Below, piece after piece: positions 29,778-51,657 of a DNA stretch of 64,000 nucleotides. The stretch comes from Escherichia coli (GTDB lineage Bacteria; Pseudomonadota; Gammaproteobacteria; Enterobacterales; Enterobacteriaceae): NCBI RefSeq assembly GCF_003334405.1, contig NZ_QOWM01000003.1; one strand, written 5' to 3'. How positions within the stretch are numbered: position 1 is the first letter of the stretch; every line of letters begins with the position of its first letter. Both the position numbers and the translations under genes were made by a program. Under the pieces are notes generated by a model, which searched no databases, was not told where the DNA came from, and was given only the letters and a program-made list of their open reading frames with translations.

Positions 29778-31073
29778 TTAATTTTTCATTGCTTCGTTAT
29801 GGGGCATGGTTGGGGCAAACTCGCTTAACTGTGTATTTAACAAAGCTACCTGTGCATTATTGTTTTCAGACATCCATTTTCCGTATACCTGAAATACCAT
29901 TTGCGCATCTGCATGGCCCATCTGGTTTGCTATAAATGCCGGGTTAGCACCAGCTGTCAGCGACCAGCAGGCATAAGTATGTCTCGACTGATATGATTTT
30001 CGATGGCGGAGTCCGGCACGTTTTATCGCTGCGTCCCACATCTGCCTTATTGAGTCAACGGTAAAATGGTCACCATAATTTTTTACTCTCGCTGACACTT
30101 CAGGTTGAAAAACAAAGGTGCATTTTTGTTTTTCTGTTCTGCCATACTCTCTGAGGTGAACATCAATGATATGCTCTTTGCTCAGTCTCGTTAATGTCAT
30201 CTGACTCCGGAGAGCGTCGATTGCTGGCTTAATAAGATGAATGACCCGATTGGTTCCCGCCTGTGTTTTTGGTACCGTGAAACGGTCTTTTGCTAAATTT
30301 CTCCTGATCATCATTGTTCCATTTTTCAGATCTATGTCCTCCCATCCAAGTGCACACAGCTCACCAGGGCGAACTCCAGTATAAACAGAAACACACCATA
30401 AATTTTTTGCTTGCTGATTTCTGCACGCATCGATAAGACGGATAAATTCTTCCCGCGAAAGAGGATCCGGAATGGTTCTTGATTCCTTTAATGGCGAGAT
30501 CCCCTTAAACGGATTATCTGCCAGGTAACCGTTATCAACACCAAACTGGAACACGGCGTTAAGATTTGTCATGTAATTATTTACAGTTACAGCCGATCTC
30601 CCTGGTTGTGTAACAATATAGTTACTTTTGGGGATCTGGTATCCAGTCAGTAACTCTTTACGAACCTCCAGTAATTTTTCTTTATTAATCGATGAGGCAA
30701 GATTTTTTTCACCGATTATGCTCAGGATATTTTTGATGACGGCACGGTATGTGTTGAGTGATGTTTTGGCGACTTCAGTTTCTTTCAGTGCCAGAAATTT
30801 TTCAGCCAGTTCTTTTATGGTTAAATCTTGTCGGGCCTCACCAAATTTTTCCAGATTGCGTGAGGAGGGAAACTGTTTTGCATAGTCGAAAACACCAGTT
30901 TTTATTGCGTAACAAACAGAGGAGCGTAGTTCACCTGCAACGCGCCTGTTTTTTGCTGTGTCAGGAACCCCCAGATTTTCCCTGACTCTTACGTCTTTAT
31001 AAACAAACCAGATACGTAATTTCCCTCCATGGTTTTCCACGCCTGTCGGATATTTCATTTCAACTTCTCTCAT
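29778..31073 (-). CDS. Lambdoid tyrosine integrase (apparently full length)
   Basis: 431-aa ORF with catalytic-domain motifs YTGVRPGELCALGWEDIDL, HTYACW and GHADAQMVFQVYGKW; real start may be the ATG at 31058 (MKYPTGV...) which has a GAGAAG upstream. Confidence 0.85.
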   Translation of the reverse strand: MREVEMKYPTGVENHGGKLRIWFVYKDVRVRENLGVPDTAKNRRVAGELRSSVCYAIKTGVFDYAKQFPSSRNLEKFGEARQDLTIKELAEKFLALKETEVAKTSLNTYRAVIKNILSIIGEKNLASSINKEKLLEVRKELLTGYQIPKSNYIVTQPGRSAVTVNNYMTNLNAVFQFGVDNGYLADNPFKGISPLKESRTIPDPLSREEFIRLIDACRNQQAKNLWCVSVYTGVRPGELCALGWEDIDLKNGTMMIRRNLAKDRFTVPKTQAGTNRVIHLIKPAIDALRSQMTLTRLSKEHIIDVHLREYGRTEKQKCTFVFQPEVSARVKNYGDHFTVDSIRQMWDAAIKRAGLRHRKSYQSRHTYACWSLTAGANPAFIANQMGHADAQMVFQVYGKWMSENNNAQVALLNTQLSEFAPTMPHNEAMKN

Positions 31074-31416: not shown

Positions 31417-33315
31417 TTAAGAATCAGCCTGACTCGGGATCAGTTTTTGCCAGATAACTGAAACGTATTTTGCCTGGTAACGGGCGTCATCAAGTGCATT
31501 ATGGCGCTCACCTTCGAATGGAATAGCCGTTCTGGCATCGAAGTCTATGGCTTTCCCCAGCTCAACGATTGTGCGTACATCGCGATCGTTGTAGTAACGC
31601 CACGGGCAGGGGATCCCCTGCCGTTCGTATGAACGGCGCAAAATCGTGTTGTCGAAGTTGGCTCCATTTCCCCAAACCTGAACAAAAAATTCACCGGAGT
31701 TTTCGTCGATAAATTCTCGCAATTGTAACAGTGCATCATCTAACGGGATTTCATCGGTCATAATGGCAGATTGCGCTTCGCGTGATTGCTTAAGCCACCA
31801 TTTAATGGTGTCCCGATCAATGACTCCGCCAGCAGTTTCCAGATCGATAGTCTTACTAAATTCCGGTCCCATATCTCCGGTTTGCGGATCGAAAAATATT
31901 GCACCTATTGAGATGATCGGGGCATCAGGATTTTTTCCCATGGTTTCAAGGTCGATCATTAGATGGTCACACGTCCTGCTGGTGGATGTGATTTCGTGAT
32001 GACCGTTCACCTTAATTGGGTGATCTGCCGTCTCGCCAGTTTCATTATCGCTATTGTGATGCTGATTGCCGCCAGTGTTCTCCTTGTGTGGATGTTCAGC
32101 GCCTTCCATTTCCTCCGGATCATCTTCCTGAACTTCAACCTGATACTCTTCATCGAATGTTTCTTGGTATGTTGCGTCGCCCATCACCGCGCCACAATCA
32201 GGGCAGTTGCCGCCGCCGGTCTGACCGCAGGCGGTGCAGACTTTTTCCACTTCCTGTTGCGCTACTGGTTCAGGCTGTTTCGTTTCTGGCTCGTTTTGTA
32301 ACGCATTTGGACTGTTTTGTTCCGCTTTTTGGTAGTTCCGTTCCGATTCATGCTGGTTCTGGTTCACAGAATCGCGGGTCTGGAGCCCCTTAACCCATTT
32401 CGGATCATTCGGGTCACTAATCCCTTCAACAAATTCACCACGTGATGCAGCAAGCAACTTATCGGCGTCAGGCTGGCTGATATTGGCTGCCTGCATAATT
32501 TTGTTTACTTCGTCAGCGGTAACTTTTATCGGCTCTGGTTGTTCTGAATCTTCAGCGGTATCTACATTTTGCGGTAAGCCCGTGTATGTGCCATTTTTTC
32601 GGGCAAAATATTCTTCTTTTGTGATTTCAGTGGCGCCAGCAGCCAGTGCCTTATCCAGACCAGAGAGTTTGTTTGCGCGACCGTATTTTTCTCCGTCCTT
32701 ATCTGCGAAGAGGAAATAGAACGGCCCCTCACGCTCTACAGATGGTTCAGCTTCCGGCGCGGTTTCATTTTTTGGGATATCAGATACCTCAGTTTCCACT
32801 GCATCAGTTTGTGTTTCTGATGACTGGAGAACATCAACAGTGCCCAGGTCTGTTTCTTCATTCTCAAACACGCCCTTTGTCGTCAGGTATTCGCAGATAT
32901 ATTTGTTCAGTGCTACGGGATCTTTGTGAATGTCGATCGGACGCTCACGGACAAGGCCAAAAATAGTTTGGCGGTCGTAGCGAAGGGCATCAGGCTGTTT
33001 GCGCATTGATGCCGAGATACGCTTCCAGTCTTCGCGGTCGTTGTCGATAACTTCTTTTTTTGCCCAGCGATGGATGCTGCCGTCAATGTTTCCGGCATCC
33101 ACATCACTAGGCCAGAGAGCGTAGGCCAGTTCGTCATCCAGTGTTTTCCATGTCTGCTTGTATTCGCGATGAATGGCAGCAATGACCGGGCTGATTTTTC
33201 CTGTTGAATTTTCAGTGTACTGTTGATTGGCTCTGGCGCGGGCGAGATCAACAACAGACGTGTATTTTCCGGTTTCCTTGCGTTCACCTTCGCGACGTTT
33301 TTTCCAGATGCGCAT
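31417..33315 (-). CDS. Phage exonuclease with C-terminal DnaQ-like (DEDDh) 3'-5' exonuclease domain
   Basis: C-terminal MIDLETMG ... WGNGANFD ... HNALDDARY motifs; central CTACGQTGGGNCPDCGA zinc ribbon; long Glu/Asp/Gln-rich linker; 5' end uncertain (first ATG at 33315; the track ORF extends to a TTG at 33450). Confidence 0.6.
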   Translation of the reverse strand: MRIWKKRREGERKETGKYTSVVDLARARANQQYTENSTGKISPVIAAIHREYKQTWKTLDDELAYALWPSDVDAGNIDGSIHRWAKKEVIDNDREDWKRISASMRKQPDALRYDRQTIFGLVRERPIDIHKDPVALNKYICEYLTTKGVFENEETDLGTVDVLQSSETQTDAVETEVSDIPKNETAPEAEPSVEREGPFYFLFADKDGEKYGRANKLSGLDKALAAGATEITKEEYFARKNGTYTGLPQNVDTAEDSEQPEPIKVTADEVNKIMQAANISQPDADKLLAASRGEFVEGISDPNDPKWVKGLQTRDSVNQNQHESERNYQKAEQNSPNALQNEPETKQPEPVAQQEVEKVCTACGQTGGGNCPDCGAVMGDATYQETFDEEYQVEVQEDDPEEMEGAEHPHKENTGGNQHHNSDNETGETADHPIKVNGHHEITSTSRTCDHLMIDLETMGKNPDAPIISIGAIFFDPQTGDMGPEFSKTIDLETAGGVIDRDTIKWWLKQSREAQSAIMTDEIPLDDALLQLREFIDENSGEFFVQVWGNGANFDNTILRRSYERQGIPCPWRYYNDRDVRTIVELGKAIDFDARTAIPFEGERHNALDDARYQAKYVSVIWQKLIPSQADS

Positions 33316-33373
33316 CTCTGCCTGAATTTCGGGCCATTTAGCACCAGGAATACATTTATGCTTAACCCACCCA

Positions 33374-33640
33374 ATGGCGTGCAACTTAAGCTCCGGATAC
33401 GGGTTATTCCCCTCTGAACAGGCGCGTAAGGACTGGCAAAACGCCCGCAAAAAACTCTCGAGGGCAAAGGTGAAGAAACCTGCTGTGGTTGATCCGGACC
33501 TTATCTGGTCATCACCTGACGGAGAAATACGTCGCTACGACAGTCGCCTAAACATAATCTGTCGCGAGTGCCGGAAGAGCGAAGTTATGCAGCGCATACT
33601 GGCTTTCTATCAGGGTAATTTTCAGGACGTGGCGCAGTGA
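33374..33640 (+). CDS. Hypothetical small basic protein
   Basis: 88-aa ORF; stop overlaps the GTG start of the downstream methyltransferase fragment (GTGA); no recognisable SD. Confidence 0.3.
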   Translation: MACNLSSGYGLFPSEQARKDWQNARKKLSRAKVKKPAVVDPDLIWSSPDGEIRRYDSRLNIICRECRKSEVMQRILAFYQGNFQDVAQ

Positions 33641-46037: not shown

Positions 46038-46193
46038 ATGCGTGAATATCCAAATGGCGAAAAAACACACCTTACTGTAATGGCCGCAGGGTTTCCATCT
46101 CTGACCGGAGATCATAAAGTCATTTATGTAGCCGCGGATCGACATGTTACTTCAGAAGAAATTCTGGAAGCAGCAATAAGGCTCTTGAGTTGA
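46038..46193 (+). CDS. ynfN: 51-aa small prophage protein (YnfN-like)
   Basis: MREYPNGEKTHLTVMAAGFPSLTGDHKVIYVAADRHVTSEEILEAAIRLLS; symbol assignment is from memory and uncertain. Confidence 0.4.
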   Translation: MREYPNGEKTHLTVMAAGFPSLTGDHKVIYVAADRHVTSEEILEAAIRLLS

Positions 46194-46364
46194 TTTGATG
46201 CTATTGCATTGATAATTCAGGAAAATTCTCTTTGTCTGTTTGTGTAAAATTTAGACTATCGTATGTTGATTATTGCGATGTTTCATCTTATCTTTTACAC
46301 GTTTGCACCATATAATCGACTTACTGTGTAACTGGAAAGTCATAACAGACTAAAAGAGGAAATG

Positions 46365-46538
46365 ATGAATATTGAAAACTTAAAAACAAAAGCAGAAGCA
46401 GATATTTCTGAATATATAACAAAAAAAATTATTGAACTTAAGAAAAAGACCGGGAAAGAAGTTACCAGTATTCAGTTTACCGCACGGGAAAAAATGACGG
46501 GTCTTGAAAGCTATGATGTCAAGATTAATTTAATCTGA
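46365..46538 (+). CDS. gnsB: GnsA/GnsB-family small protein
   Basis: 57-aa ORF MNIENLKTKAEADISEYITKKIIELKKKTGKEVTSIQFTAREKMTGLESYDVKINLI. Confidence 0.75.
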   Translation: MNIENLKTKAEADISEYITKKIIELKKKTGKEVTSIQFTAREKMTGLESYDVKINLI

Positions 46539-46689
46539 TGTATTCAATAATAAAATTTATCCATAAACCTCGTTTTTACGGGGTTTTGTTATATTTGAAT
46601 GGTTCCGAATATCTAAATCACAATTGTTGATGGTTTTTATTAAACCAATGCAGTCCGGCTCAGGAGTGAGAGAAGCCGGACGTTATGGT

Positions 46690-47100
46690 TTAGCGTGGTA
46701 AGATCTGTGTAGTTTTCTGGATGCTTTCAGTAAATAGTAATGAATTATCAAAGGTATAGTAATATCTTTTTTGTTCGTGGATATTTGTAACCCACCGAAA
46801 AACTCCTGCTTTAGCAAGGTTTCTTCTGTATTCCTGAAATGTGATCTCTCTGGATTTCAGCTTATTAGAGGTCGTTTCTATAAGATGCCTATCCTTTGAA
46901 AATTTGACAGACACAATGTTTTTTAGGCCCTTTAATAACACTGTATTATCATTTTTTAATACAATATGAACATTCTCTGTGGCTAAATAGTAAATGTAAT
47001 GTGAGACATTGTGACGTTTTAGCTCAGAATAAAACCATTGATAGTTTAAATCGTTTCGAACTTTATCAAATATTTGTTTAAAAATGACTACCTGATCCAT
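46690..47100 (-). CDS. ydfO: DUF1398 prophage protein
   Basis: 136 aa from ATG 47100 ([30 protein letters not shown]...). Confidence 0.7.
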
Positions 47101-47157
47101 AGATAAACCTTCCATGTGATATGAGGGGGCGTAGTCTGCACGATTATCTAAATTGCT

Positions 47158-47391
47158 TCAATCTGGTCTGACCTGTTTTCTGAGCAATTCAGTAATGTCA
47201 CTCTTTTCTTTGTTTGCTTCAGAAGAAACTCTTTTTTCTGAGCACAGTCTCCGGCGGCAGGCTTCAATGACCCAGGCTGAGAAATTCCCGGACCCTTTTT
47301 GCTCAAGAGCGATGTTAATTTGTTCAATCATTTGGTTAGGAAAGCGGATGTTGCGGGTTGTTGTTCTGCGGGTTCTGTTCTTCGTTGACAT
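47158..47391 (-). CDS. ynfO: Small basic prophage protein (YnfO-like)
   Basis: 77-aa ORF MSTKNRTRRTTTRNIRFPNQMIEQINIALEQKGSGNFSAWVIEACRRRL...; ribbon-helix-helix-like. Confidence 0.5.
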   Translation of the reverse strand: MSTKNRTRRTTTRNIRFPNQMIEQINIALEQKGSGNFSAWVIEACRRRLCSEKRVSSEANKEKSDITELLRKQVRPD

Positions 47392-47779
47392 GAGGTTGCC
47401 CCGTATTCAGTGTCGCTGATTTGTATTGTCTGAAGTTGTTTTTACGTTAAGTTGATGCAGATCAATTAATACGATACCTGCGTCATAATTGATTATTTGA
47501 CGTGGTTTGATGGCCTCCACGCACGTTGTGATATGTAGATGATAATCATTATCACTTTACGGGTCCTTTCCGGTGATCCGACAGGTTACGGGGCGGCGAC
47601 CTCGCGGGTTTTCGCTATTTATGAAAATTTTCCGGTTTAAGGTGTTTCCGTTCTTCTTCGTCGTAACTTAATGTTTTTATTTAAAATACCCCCTGAAAAG
47701 AAAGGAAACGACAGGTGCTGAAAGCGGGCTTTTTGGCCTTTGTCGTTTCCTTTCTCTGTTTTTGTCCGTGGAATGAACA

Positions 47780-48325
47780 ATGGAAGTCAACAAAAAGCAG
47801 CTGGCTGACATTTTCGGTGCGAGTATCCGTACCATTCAGAACTGGCAGGAACAGGGAATGCCCGTTCTGCGAGGCGGTGGCAAGGGTAATGAGGTGCTTT
47901 ATGATTCTGCCGCCGTCATAAAATGGTATGCCGAAAGGGATGCTGAAATTGAGAACGAAAAGCTGCGCCGGGAAGTTGAAGAACTGCGGCAGGCCAGCGA
48001 GACAGATCTCCAGCCAGGGACTATTGAGTACGAACGCCATCGACTTACGCGTGCGCAGGCCGACGCACAGGAGCTGAAAAATGCCAGAGACTCCGCTGAA
48101 GTGGTGGAAACCGCATTCTGTACTTTCGTGCTGTCGCGGATCGCAGGTGAAATTGCCAGTATTCTCGACGGGATCCCCCTGTCGGTGCAGCGGCGTTTTC
48201 CGGAACTGGAAAACCGACATGTTGATTTCCTGAAACGGGATATCATCAAAGCCATGAACAAAGCAGCCGCGCTGGATGAACTGATAACGGGGCGCACTTT
48301 GACGGTGACCAGAGCGGCACGGTGA
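47780..48325 (+). CDS. nohA: Terminase small subunit Nu1 homolog, C-terminus replaced at a deletion junction
   Basis: First ~168 aa match lambda Nu1 (MEVNKKQLADIFGASIRTIQNWQEQGMPVLRGGGKGNEVLYDSAAVIKWYAERD...ALDELI), then an unrelated tail TGRTLTVTRAAR-stop. Confidence 0.75.
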   Translation: MEVNKKQLADIFGASIRTIQNWQEQGMPVLRGGGKGNEVLYDSAAVIKWYAERDAEIENEKLRREVEELRQASETDLQPGTIEYERHRLTRAQADAQELKNARDSAEVVETAFCTFVLSRIAGEIASILDGIPLSVQRRFPELENRHVDFLKRDIIKAMNKAAALDELITGRTLTVTRAAR

Positions 48326-48609
48326 ATGGTGTCACGCCGCCAGCAGTTCAGCACCTGACCGCAGAAGTCACCGCAGACAGCGGGGAATACCAGGTGCTGG
48401 CGCGCTGGGACACGCCGAAGGTGGTGAAGGGGGTGAGCTTTATGCTTCGCCTGACCGTGGCAGCGGACGACGGCAGTGAGCGGTTGGTCAGCACGGCCCG
48501 GACGACGGAAACCACATATCGCTTCACGCAGCTGGCGCTGGGAAATTACAGGCTGACAGTCCGGGCGGTAAATGCATGGGGACAGCCGGTGCACATACCC
48601 ATTCGATGA
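48322..48609 (+). pseudogene. Fragment of tail tip/host specificity protein J (fibronectin-III-like region)
   Basis: ...[25 protein letters not shown] matches the lambda J C-terminal region; only about 95 codons present. Confidence 0.5.
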
Positions 48610-48884
48610 CATTTGTTTCAGGTGGTTCCAGTGGTGCTCCGGGAAGTGGATCACCTGATTATTCTAAATACAGTGTTAACACTTCTTCTGCAGGCGCTCA
48701 TACGCACTCTGTATCGGGTACTGCTGCAAGCGCAGGTGCACACGCACATACTGTCGGTATTGGTGCTCATACGCACTCCGTTGCGATTGGTTCACATGGA
48801 CATACCATCACCGTTAACGCTGCTGGTAACGCGGAAAACACCGTCAAAAACATCGCATTTAACTATATTGTGAGGCTTGCATAA
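48576..48884 (+). pseudogene. C-terminal fragment of side tail fibre protein Stf
   Basis: Gly/Ser/Thr-rich sequence with repeated GAHTHS motifs ([36 protein letters not shown]) typical of lambdoid Stf C-termini; no N-terminal part. Confidence 0.6.
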
Positions 48885-49459
48885 TGGCATTCAGAATGAG
48901 TGAACAACCACGGACCATAAAAATTTATAATCTGCTGGCCGGAACTAATGAATTTATTGGTGAAGGTGATGCATATATTCCGCCTCATACAGGTCTGCCA
49001 GCAAACAGTACCGATATTGCACCGCCAGATATTCCGGCAGGCTTCGTGGCTGTTTTCAACAGTGATGAGGCATCGTGGCATCTCGTTGAAGATCATCGGG
49101 GTAAAACGGTTTATGACGTAGCGTCAGGGGACGCGTTATTTATTTCTGAACTCGGTCCGTTACCGGAAAATGTTACCTGGTTATCGCCGGAAGGGGAGTT
49201 TCAGAAGTGGAACGGCACAGCCTGGGTGAAGGATACGGAAGCAGAAAAACTGTTCCGGATCCGGGAGGCGGAAGAAACAAAAAACAGCCTGATGCAGATA
49301 GCCAGTGAGCATATAGCGCCGCTTCAGGATGCTGTGGATCTGGAGATCGCAACGGAGGAAGAAACCTTGTTGCTGGAAGCCTGGAAAAAGTATCGGGTGT
49401 TGCTGAACCGTGTTGATACATCAACTGCACCGGATATTGAATGGCCAGCACTGCCGTAG
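48884..49459 (+). CDS. tfa: Tail fibre assembly protein
   Basis: 191-aa ORF; start overlaps the stf fragment stop. Confidence 0.8.
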
Positions 49460-49556
49460 GGTAAAACATATAAATTCTATAATTAGATGTATCTCTCCAT
49501 TTACGGCAAGGAAGGGGGCTTGGAAGACGTAAAGCATCTCACACCGAGATTATTTT

Positions 49557-50147
49557 TTATATGTCAGGTGTCTGACGTTTTGCTTTGGCTCTTAAAATGG
49601 TTTGCCGCGAGGTTTTGAATTCCCGGGCAATGGCACTTATACTTACACCTGACTTAATTCGTTCGAATACCACCTGTTTCTGTTCTTCATTTAACACAGG
49701 TGGTCGACCAAAACGTTTCCCTGCGCCGCGGGCTCTTACTATCCCGGAATGAGTGCGTTCAAGTAAAAGGTCTCGTTCAAATTCAGCGACTGCTGAAATT
49801 ACGTGCATCATCATTTTTCCTGTTGGACTGGTCAGGTCAATGCCCCCCAATGCTAAGCAATGCACTCTGATACCTGTTTCGGTCAGTTGTTCCACTGTTT
49901 TCCTGATATCCATTGCATTACAACCAAGGCGATCCAGTTTTGTCACAATCAATTGATCACCACATTTCAGGCGAGCAAGCAACCGGTTAAAACCAGGACG
50001 CTCACTGGTTGCTGCTGAGCCGCTAATGTGTTCTTCGATTATTTGCTGAGGTTTGATTTTAAAACCTGCACTTTCGATTTCCCGGCGTTGATTTTCGGTG
50101 GTCTGATCCAGCGTTGATATCCGACAGTAAGCAAAAATTCGAGACAT
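49557..50147 (-). CDS. pin: Serine recombinase, Hin/Gin/Pin DNA-invertase family
   Basis: 196-aa [23 protein letters not shown]... with catalytic Ser in RISTLDQ and C-terminal HTH. Confidence 0.88.
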
Positions 50148-50463
50148 AGTGAGACTCTATACGAAATTGGTGTTCATATCATAATGCATCTCAGAAAATA
50201 ATTTTGATTATTTTTGTGCATATTTGTATGTACACGTTCGAAAATAAACGAATGCGTATGCAACCCCGTAACTTTGGTGAGACCCAAAATCGATTTTGTG
50301 AAAAATGGCTTTAACTCGGTTTGTTTTTCGAGTTCCGGGCGGACTCAAGGAAGAAGAATAGTGTTGCGTGTTATTTTAACCAGATTTCAAGTTGTTTGGT
50401 CGTGGAAAAGTGGAGCAAAATGTTGTTAAAGTGGAAAAATGATAAAAAAGTAAGTTTATTATA

Positions 50464-50697
50464 TTACATTTTACCATTTAAATTTTGGTTGTCTTTAAGA
50501 ACTGATATCGCTGTTTGTAATAATTCTTTGTTATCCAGCCATGATTTTTTCTTTATGTTTCCTTCAATGTAATCAAGCAATGTTCTGGTATTGATAGGTC
50601 TTCCCTGTTTTGCTACTTCCACTACAGCATCCCCTAGGATAATTCTGACTTCAGGAAGCTGCGCAGGGAACCACTTTAGGGTGTCTTTTGATTTCAT
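50464..50697 (-). CDS. ynaE: DUF1737-like prophage small protein (YnaE/YdfK family)
   Basis: 77 aa from ATG 50697 (MKSKDTLKWFPAQLPEVRIILGDAVVEVAKQGRPINTRTLLDYIEGNIKKK...). Confidence 0.75.
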   Translation of the reverse strand: MKSKDTLKWFPAQLPEVRIILGDAVVEVAKQGRPINTRTLLDYIEGNIKKKSWLDNKELLQTAISVLKDNQNLNGKM

Positions 50698-51657
50698 GAA
50701 TATATTCCTTAAAATATTATTGATTTTCATTGCGATATTGTATGTCTGATTCAGGATATGTTGACTTATACATCGGTTTTGTCTGGGTTATTGGATATGC
50801 CAATCCCTAATTTTATTAGGGCATGACTAAAAATGCTGAATATGATAAGGAGCGAAGTGATTATCAGTATGCTGTTCATATAGCCTCGAATTAGTAATGT
50901 GTTATATATGATATAGTTGACAATTTTTATCCTGGGTGTTCTTAAAGTTCGTAGATAAACATTGTCGTTTCAGGTATACAGGAATGCTAACAGATGGCGG
51001 CAAAAATCAGGCGGTTTATGGCGCAAGCTGAAGTGGCAACTGCAAACTATCTTATGCAGAGACTCTACACGGATTGGGTTTAAAAGTATACATAGATAAC
51101 AGTTTTTATCTGAAGAAGAAAAATATCAAGGTGATATAGCCTATATGCCTTTGATGTGGAGGAATGAATGTGATGGGAGTGATGTATCTGAATAGTTGAA
51201 AAACCGCAGTCACGTCGTATGCAAGAACGTGCTGCGGTTGGTTTGACTTTGATTGAGACGTTTTGGAATTTTTTTTTGTGGCAAAAATGGGGCAAAACGC
51301 TGCAAAAGGGGCAAAAAAGGGGCAAAAAAAGAGTGGATTATCGTAGTTTATTGTTCTCGCTGATGATGTTTAACACATTGAAAAATAAGTAAAACACTTA
51401 TGAGTCAGATAGTTGTGATTTTTGCCCTTACTTGTTCAGATTGTATTGTTCTTTCTTACTAATTTCTTGATTTTGCGACATTTAAAAGCGACTCAATTCG
51501 TTATATGGCATCAGAAGAGTATGCGTCATGCCGGAACGCCCAGCATAAGAAATCTGATATAAAAAACTGTGGCGTGTATGGTACGGATTAGAGGGGAAAA
51601 TGTCAGCACATTTGCGAAATGAATCAAAAAGCCCGCAGCAATGTGCGGGCGTTAGTG

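Follow-up and report, generated by a model that had tools for sequence, protein, structure and literature searches.

The pinQ gene of the Escherichia coli prophage Qin as a probable tnpR relic of a Tn3-family transposon

The 64,000-nucleotide (nt) stretch of Escherichia coli DNA analysed in this study (contig NZ_QOWM01000003.1 of assembly GCF_003334405.1, hereafter the window) encodes one small serine recombinase of the type annotated as Pin, beside a tail-fibre module. The locus is recognisable as the known nohA-stf'-tfaQ-pinQ-ydfK end of the cryptic prophage Qin. Its recombinase gene, pinQ, is very probably a fossil tnpR (the resolvase gene of a transposon), still accompanied by remnants of a terminal inverted repeat and of a res site, which never had an invertible segment next to it and does not flip stf'/tfa. 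The ancestry of the gene, the anatomy of the locus and the absence of paired crossover sites are regarded here as established. The more complete explanation, that pinQ is the surviving right half of a Tn3-family transposon and that its published effect in trans depends on a true invertase, is considered likely.

PinQ contains the domains Resolvase (PF00239, 6.7e-36) and HTH_7 (PF02796, 7.5e-11), the architecture of Tn3-family resolvases. It shares 38-40% identity with PinE and 36-39% with Gin or Cin-type proteins, compared with 79% between PinE and Gin, and thus falls well short of the mutual identity of the invertase family. Its recognition helix, ending in (S/T)RQTILR, is essentially that of TnpR proteins and unlike that of PinE, and the Hin-family pattern ...VA(L/I)IYDV(A/G)(L/V)STLYK... 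is absent. A scan of PinQ against NCBIfam returned only sub-threshold matches to Mpi and XisF and gave no family assignment. A scan of viral contigs was tried as a way to define the family, yielding near-identical copies and a single one at 85% identity; protein database and plasmid searches did so instead. The protein database search placed PinQ in a large clade of relatives at 60-84% identity, which Enterobacterales, Shewanella and others carry on plasmids or chromosomes, and relatives were found on 1858 plasmids, 1499 of them at 60-80% identity. The relatives at 77-84% identity (three lineages: P0014, P0073 and P0100) are encoded 160 bp from, and divergently to, a 994-amino-acid (aa) transposase with DUF4158 and DDE_Tnp_Tn3 domains in nine of ten places, the tenth having a DUF4158 fragment only. 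The complete element is 3815 bp long and is bounded by exact 38-bp inverted repeats GGGGTCCGCTTGGAAAACGGAAAATATCCCACGCTAAG. Given the neighbouring tnpA and the exact bounding repeats, these relatives are taken to be the TnpR resolvases of a minimal Tn3-family transposon, and the TnpR of the complete element is 84% identical to PinQ.

The homology extends beyond the gene. A single continuous blastn match (82% over 728 nt) links positions 50243-49518 of the window to the complete element, running from the interior of res through the gene to the transposon end. The terminal inverted repeat is represented by one relic copy, in which 20 of 25 core positions are matched and the tip is degenerate. 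The tip lies 51 nt past the tfa stop codon and the inner end 8 nt from the pin stop codon, the latter spacing being like that of intact elements, and the same relic is found in K-12 Rac and in phage Turner. On the other side of the gene, directly upstream of the pinQ start codon (ATG, 50147), a degenerate res site was aligned with those of three complete transposons and three plasmid half-elements (family half-site TGT(C/A)CGAAA), which places subsite III at about 50159-50176, subsite II at 50189-50220 and subsite I at 50235-50260. Promoter-like hexamers overlap this relic. Homology to the complete elements ends near 50243, inside site I, and the sequence further upstream is common only to the tnpA-less half-element of pS84 (Table 1). 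In this pS84-shared stretch, upstream of res site I, CAAAATCGATTTTG at about 50285-50302 forms a perfect palindrome of 14 bp whose arms extend further. No TnpA remnant was detected by tblastn in the whole window, nor was a second intact res site I that could serve as a partner site. With neither tnpA nor a second inverted repeat, the locus is a remnant and not a complete transposon.

Table 1. Features of the pinQ region, in window coordinates.
Feature	Position	Strand	Evidence
nohA (Qin DNA-packaging gene), left neighbour	47780-48325	+	Open reading frame (ORF); named nohA in 99.7%-identical genomes
Tail-tip J gene, internal fragment fused to stf remnant	48322-48583	+	NCBIfam lambda_TipJ positions 612-699, E 3.6e-46
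stf 3' remnant	48583-48884	+	From 48583 on, collinear with the last part of a full-length stf (L002)
Rac/Qin shared module, 2.66 kb (stf 3' end, tfa, pin, ydfK, ynaM)	48583-51241	.	blastn map and table of single-nucleotide polymorphisms (SNPs)
tfaQ, tail-fibre assembly gene, intact, 191 aa	48884-49459	+	ORF, annotation in relatives, tblastn
Terminal inverted repeat relic, 38 bp, Tn3-family	49511-49548	.	Alignment with exact GGGGTCCGCTTGGAAAACGGAAAATATCCCACGCTAAG of complete elements
pinQ, 196-aa small serine recombinase, tnpR-type resolvase gene	49557-50147	-	Pfam Resolvase and HTH_7; TnpR identity
Degenerate res site	50159-50260	-	Alignment with transposons and plasmid half-elements
Stretch upstream of res, common only to pS84 half-element	50261-50336	-	blastn to L031 ends at 50336
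ydfK/ynaE-type gene, part of Rac/Qin shared module	50464-50730	-	ORF, annotation in relatives

The catalytic residues of the phage-borne protein have changed. PinQ retains Y7, R9, S11 and R73 but lacks the full Tn3 set (Y6, R8, S10, D36, R68 and R71), since Cys76 aligns with Arg71 of gamma-delta and Tn3 resolvases in the KLDRLGR motif. Cysteine occupies this position in every phage-borne copy examined (K-12 PinQ and PinR, phage Turner and the 85%-identical variant), compared with arginine in all 112 of the transposon and plasmid relatives with a readable DRLG motif (of 120 listed). In Tn3 resolvase, the substitutions R71A and R71K abolish recombination and reduce cleavage about 1000-fold or more (PMC2794168). 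The ratio of nonsynonymous to synonymous substitution rates (dN/dS) was 0.08 among the transposon copies, 0.15-0.16 for the copy of the window compared with these, and 0.31-0.37 inside the phage-borne lineage, where constraint is accordingly relaxed, though still present. A pin copy on one viral contig (L014:1-591) has, besides Cys76, a histidine at the second catalytic arginine (R73H, equivalent to Tn3 R68), which is consistent with relaxed constraint on catalysis.

A sequence-only reading of the same DNA had described pinQ as a Hin/Gin/Cin/Pin-family invertase retained after the loss of its invertible segment. The inventory behind that reading was accurate: one stf C-terminal fragment, one tfa and one pin are present in the 64 kb by tblastn, and tfa and the convergent pin, placed about 100 bp apart, are separated by 97 nt (49460-49556). 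It had also recognised no paired crossover sites, and the searches agree. The core of the e14 pix site gave four chance-level matches in the window and none near the pin locus, and the degenerate 26-bp Hin/Gin/Cin/Pin consensus gave 0 matches at <=3 mismatches in the whole window, so that the hunt for 26-bp gix/pix-like sites which it had proposed turned up no pair there. An inverted-repeat search of 47600-50400 returned weak pairs only (70-88% complementarity), mostly within coding regions, and a search of stfR-tfaR-pinR in K-12 Rac, where stfR is full-length, also returned weak pairs only (70-88% complementarity). The tool recovered all of its positive controls, namely e14 pix (21 nt at 95%, with a spacing of 1797 nt), Mu gix (41 nt at 93%, with a spacing of 3002 nt) and a gix-like pair of a Rac variant. 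One pair, 48560-48574 and 49498-49512 (15 nt, 80%), brackets stf'-tfa; it was rejected, since dozens of chance pairs are just as good and one arm falls inside the J fragment. The palindrome CCCAAAATCGATTTTG near 50285-50302 looks hix-like by eye and was likewise set aside, being outside the res conserved in complete transposons and shared only loosely with pS84.

The arrangement of the genes also differs from that of an invertase system, in which two inverted 26-bp sites bound the adjacent segment. The 5' end of pinE lies 62 bp from pixR and that of gin 55 bp from gixR; pinQ turns its 3' end to tfa and its 5' end to ydfK, and shows no such spacing of about 60 bp between gene and site. The proximity of pinQ to stf/tfa, its historical name and annotation as a 'DNA invertase', and the clear decay of this Qin copy, with its J and stf fragments, might all suggest a former Hin/Gin/Cin/Pin tail-fibre switch whose alternative stf/tfa genes and both sites were lost while the invertase gene stayed. 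However, the isolated 48-kb phage Turner is organised as J-lom-stf-tfa-pin-ydfK, with one stf, one tfa and a recombinase 99% identical to PinQ; K-12 Rac has a full-length stfR and a single tfaR followed by a convergent pinR; and 21 of the 21 viral contigs recovered with PinQ have ydfK-pin and then an opposed tfa. As an intact phage and Rac share this layout, the premise of a lost invertible segment is unsupported, and the single stf-tfa-pin arrangement is native rather than a product of decay. The shared layout already contradicts the decay reading; the convergent orientation, the identity of 37-40% to the invertase family, as against 79% within it and 84% to TnpR, and the inverted-repeat and res relics on either side of the gene add to this, and that reading is now barely tenable.

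A further argument against decay comes from variants at the Rac site. In these, pinR and the inverted-repeat relic are accompanied by a tfa 3' fragment of 31 aa, a Gin-type gene cut to 72 aa and, after a gix-like site, a stf/tfa segment resembling Mu G, with its gix-like sites spaced by 3011 nt (L024:1644-5095; L028; L047; L049). In this phage group, then, a genuine tail-fibre switch comes with a Gin-type enzyme of its own. The strains TUM9868 (L047) and 1217KP (L049) encode identical PinR and truncated-Gin proteins and have the segment in opposite orientations; since the switch flipped after its own Gin-type enzyme was broken, some invertase has acted in trans. The claim of flipping refers to this pair of strains only. 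The counts of two junction types (133 versus 131 genomes) were not taken to prove that switching continues, because the FORC_082 type is a deletion derivative.

Action in trans has been reported for PinQ itself. Kirigo et al. (Nucleic Acids Research (NAR) 2025; PMC12529663) stated that PinQ has no local target and saw no inversion inside either Qin or Rac among public genomes. The P segment of e14 was inverted in 30% of the wild type, 22% of delta-pinQ and 1.5% of delta-pinE, and in 49% upon overproduction of PinE (PMC12529663, Table S4 for the deletion strains). Table S4 sits uneasily with the claim of the paper that PinQ and PinR are the dominant invertases (PMC12529663). Because only 1.5% was inverted without PinE although pinQ and pinR were present, PinE is needed at native expression and PinQ/PinR do not suffice; these fractions, together with the R71C change, place PinQ as a catalyst in doubt. 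The sequence-only reading had suggested that the invertase might be orphaned or might act in trans on the partner prophage. The first part is borne out by the lack of a local invertase-type substrate and the idea of trans action by the published work, whereas the partner was misjudged, as the reported target is e14, a third prophage.

Several observations weigh against the interpretation of PinQ as a resolvase fossil that depends on another enzyme. Overproduction of PinQ resulted in 88% inversion of the 1797-bp e14 P segment and in protection against T2, the inversion giving rise to StfE2, by which adsorption of T2 is blocked, and Kirigo et al. read PinQ as an active invertase (PMC12529663). 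The R71 mutants of Tn3 resolvase were described as "not inert" (PMC2794168), and strongly overexpressed PinQ could still catalyse exchange. Some function is kept, to judge from a dN/dS that stays under 1 and from thousands of genomes with an intact ORF. The res arms of the window score 3-7 bits on the half-site model, compared with 10-16 bits for intact arms. Finally, the gix-flanked segment of the Rac variants lies some 470 bp away from the pinR 3' end and occurs in both orientations across strains, which fits an active PinR as well as another invertase acting in trans.

These points lend themselves to the model of Kirigo et al. (2025), in which PinQ would be a fully competent invertase without local substrate that acts in trans on Hin-type sites (e14 P) as an anti-phage tail-fibre switch. 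T2 survivors carry the 1797-bp P inversion, and deletion of stfP or stfE removes protection against T2 (PMC12529663). The outer half-site of pix, TCTCCCAAAC, fits the TnpR half-site model, and in the Rac variants the flipping G-like segment lies beside a dead gin and an intact pinR. The 88% inversion is itself ambiguous, since plain invertase activity should settle at about 50:50, as was seen when PinE was overproduced (49%), and the higher value suggests selection or bias. Cysteine in all PinQ/PinR copies at the position of R71, mutants of which do not recombine in Tn3 resolvase (PMC2794168), a recognition helix unlike that of PinE, and the collapse of inversion in delta-pinE despite pinQ and pinR, set against the small loss in delta-pinQ (PMC12529663, Table S4), all count against this model. 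On balance a fully competent PinQ is unlikely, though it is the most serious of the alternatives.

The reading of PinQ as a transposon relic leaves two possibilities: a weak catalyst visible only on overexpression, or a factor acting by binding or bias. On the TnpR half-site model, the half-site TCTCCCAAAC of pix scores 4.9 bits, within the top 0.12% of 10-mers and about equal to the arms of the relic itself, which makes binding of PinQ at pix plausible. That PinQ is mainly a DNA-binding derivative, probably autoregulating at the res relic and affecting Hin-type switches in trans only when a true invertase acts alongside it, has somewhat less than an even chance of being right. A more specific proposal, which must be viewed as rather improbable, is that PinQ and PinR are exapted resolvases that lost normal catalysis with R71C, kept site recognition, and serve as binding partners or bias factors at Hin-type sites, setting the orientation of switches cut by a true invertase (PinE or Gin-type). 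Such a factor could target the P segment of e14 and, in Rac variants, the G-like segment next to the truncated gin. If this were true, PinQ and PinR would be domesticated regulators of phase variation and anti-phage defence, and not invertases.

The history of the locus probably began with a small Tn3-family transposon (IR-tnpA-res-tnpR-IR, where IR is the inverted repeat; 3815 bp when complete), the right half of which would have become fixed some 50 bp past the end of tfa in the ancestor of Rac/Qin-type lambdoid phages. The survivors are the terminal inverted repeat, tnpR as pinQ and the mutated three-subsite res (Table 1), with tnpA replaced by the ydfK side. The only cognate site of PinQ would then be the single res relic upstream of its gene, and stf'/tfa would not be flipped. 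As the DNA-recognition helix of the transposon resolvases has been kept, PinQ should still bind TGTCCGAAA-like half-sites including its own res relic, where binding would suggest autoregulation as in Tn3. At best weak strand exchange is expected of it because the catalytic R71 is replaced by cysteine. On the P segment of e14, PinQ most likely acts in trans and, at native expression, would depend on a true invertase such as PinE.

The pin module has also marked the structure of this chromosome. Over window positions 26486-62473, Qin with its flank on the rspAB side passes through the 2.66-kb shared module into the right flank of Rac, Qin sequence reaching to 51241 and the Rac flank (ttcC', uspF, ompN, ydbK) starting at 51242. 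This junction implies a chromosomal inversion of about 0.2 Mb across the terminus region. It is spanned in 2 of 5426 complete genomes, and one of these, a C600 assembly, carries both reciprocal junctions about 200 kb apart. When the Rac and Qin alleles of K-12 are taken as the parents, the crossover in C600 falls in the interval corresponding to window positions 50932-50999. Some 700 bp separate it from res site I, so that homologous recombination within the inverted module would be sufficient. The breakpoint of the window itself falls in 49441-51210 and no narrower, the proxy Qin and Rac copies being identical over 49495-51209.

Could PinQ or PinR have acted here on the partner prophage after all, recombining pin-associated sites of Rac and Qin to give the inversion whose junction lies in the window? 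In favour of this, the change from Qin to Rac in the window runs exactly through the pin module that both prophages share, and the breakpoint interval from proxy SNPs includes pin and res. The independent C600 inversion, however, was exchanged away from res, RecA-dependent recombination has ample substrate in an inverted repeat of 2.66 kb at 98-99.9% identity, and PinQ lacks the catalytic arginine. Resolvases of the res type, moreover, act on directly repeated sites. Site-specific action on the partner prophage is thus highly improbable.

The identity of the surrounding prophage is clear from its neighbours. Positions 47600-51000 are 99.7% identical to many E. coli chromosomes, where the genes are annotated as nohA, J-related fragment, tail-fibre fragment, tfaQ, pinQ and ydfK, and positions 36789-48292 are collinear with K-12 Qin at 99.9% identity. 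The gene order nohA-stf'-tfaQ-pinQ-ydfK is that of Qin, with Qin lysis and cold-shock genes on the left. The J fragment corresponds to a partial 'J-related protein' in the annotation of FORC 064, and the stf remnant is held in a 102-aa ORF at 48576-48884(+) whose start at 48576 is incidental. Within 48322-48609, the joining of an internal J fragment (residues about 612-699) directly to the last 100 or so stf codons near 48576-48583 forms a deletion scar that is unlike K-12 stfQ and common to Qin copies of the FORC 064 type. The Qin copy of the window, unlike that of K-12, also keeps an intact 431-aa integrase at 29778-31073 and a 677-aa RecE-like exonuclease at 31417-33450, and bears an insertion of an insertion-sequence (IS) transposase at 35660-36973.

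The locus itself is textbook K-12 biology, and both the missing local segment and the e14 target in trans are already in print. A Tn3 or TnpR origin of PinQ is not mentioned by Kirigo et al. (PMC12529663), and no paper stating it was found. What this study adds is that PinQ and PinR are relics of Tn3-family resolvases, that the inverted repeat and res are still recognisable and that the substitution of the catalytic arginine is fixed in the phage-borne copies examined. These additions, the ancestry and the fixed substitution, are modest but testable. They raise a concrete and testable doubt about PinQ as the catalyst in the proposed recombinase-activated phage defence. They also indicate that labels such as "Pin" or "DNA invertase from prophage Rac" are poor evidence of a tail-fibre switch, the more so as annotation pipelines have spread the label to plasmid TnpR genes. 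Furthermore, identical and oppositely oriented pin modules in Rac and Qin are substrates for inversions of about 0.2 Mb across the replication terminus, of which the window is an example.

Compared with the K-12 prophages Qin and Rac, the gene order around pinQ/pinR is the same (nohA-stf'-tfaQ-pinQ-ydfK-ynfT), and the PinQ protein of the window is two residues off K-12 PinR and four off K-12 PinQ; the published trans effect on the e14 P segment applies to the window protein too. The differences are that K-12 Qin has a 320-aa stfQ in place of the fusion of the J fragment to the stf 3' end, and that its module is joined to ydfJ rather than to the Rac right flank.

The Hin/Gin/Cin/PinE invertases, with e14 P and Mu G as their switches, resemble PinQ in the small serine recombinase fold, the stf/tfa neighbourhood and the reported influence on the same switch, and the half-sites of Hin-type invertases (TCTCCCAAA) and of TnpR type (TGTCCGAAA) are distantly alike. 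They differ in having a pair of 26-bp sites, the 5' end of the gene toward the switch and another recognition helix, and their kinship is much closer among themselves (79% for PinE and Gin) than with PinQ (36-40%).

The architecture of Resolvase and HTH_7 is that of Tn3-family systems such as Tn3 and gamma-delta (tnpA-res-tnpR). The nearest match is the unnamed 3815-bp minimal element of this family, found on E. coli, Shewanella and Hafnia replicons, with 77-84% protein and 72-82% DNA identity to the window copy. It shares with the window the recognition helix, has just upstream of its tnpR a res whose three subsites align with the degenerate relic upstream of pinQ, and carries a homologous 38-bp terminal inverted repeat of the GGGG...ACGCTAAG type 8 nt past the stop codon. 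The Tn3-family element has tnpA and a second inverted repeat, whereas the window locus is without both and sits in a phage tail-fibre region; there, the tip of the repeat and the res arms are degenerate, the equivalent of Arg71 is cysteine and constraint is relaxed.

The tnpA-less res-resolvase modules of plasmids, beside ParA/ParG on Erwinia pEA29 and on the IncI plasmid pS84, belong to the same clade as PinQ (72-84%) and are likewise in the state of a half-element, that of pS84 having even its sequence upstream of res site I in common with the window. These plasmid half-elements keep intact res arms and the catalytic arginine and presumably resolve multimers, whereas the phage-borne copy keeps neither arms nor arginine.

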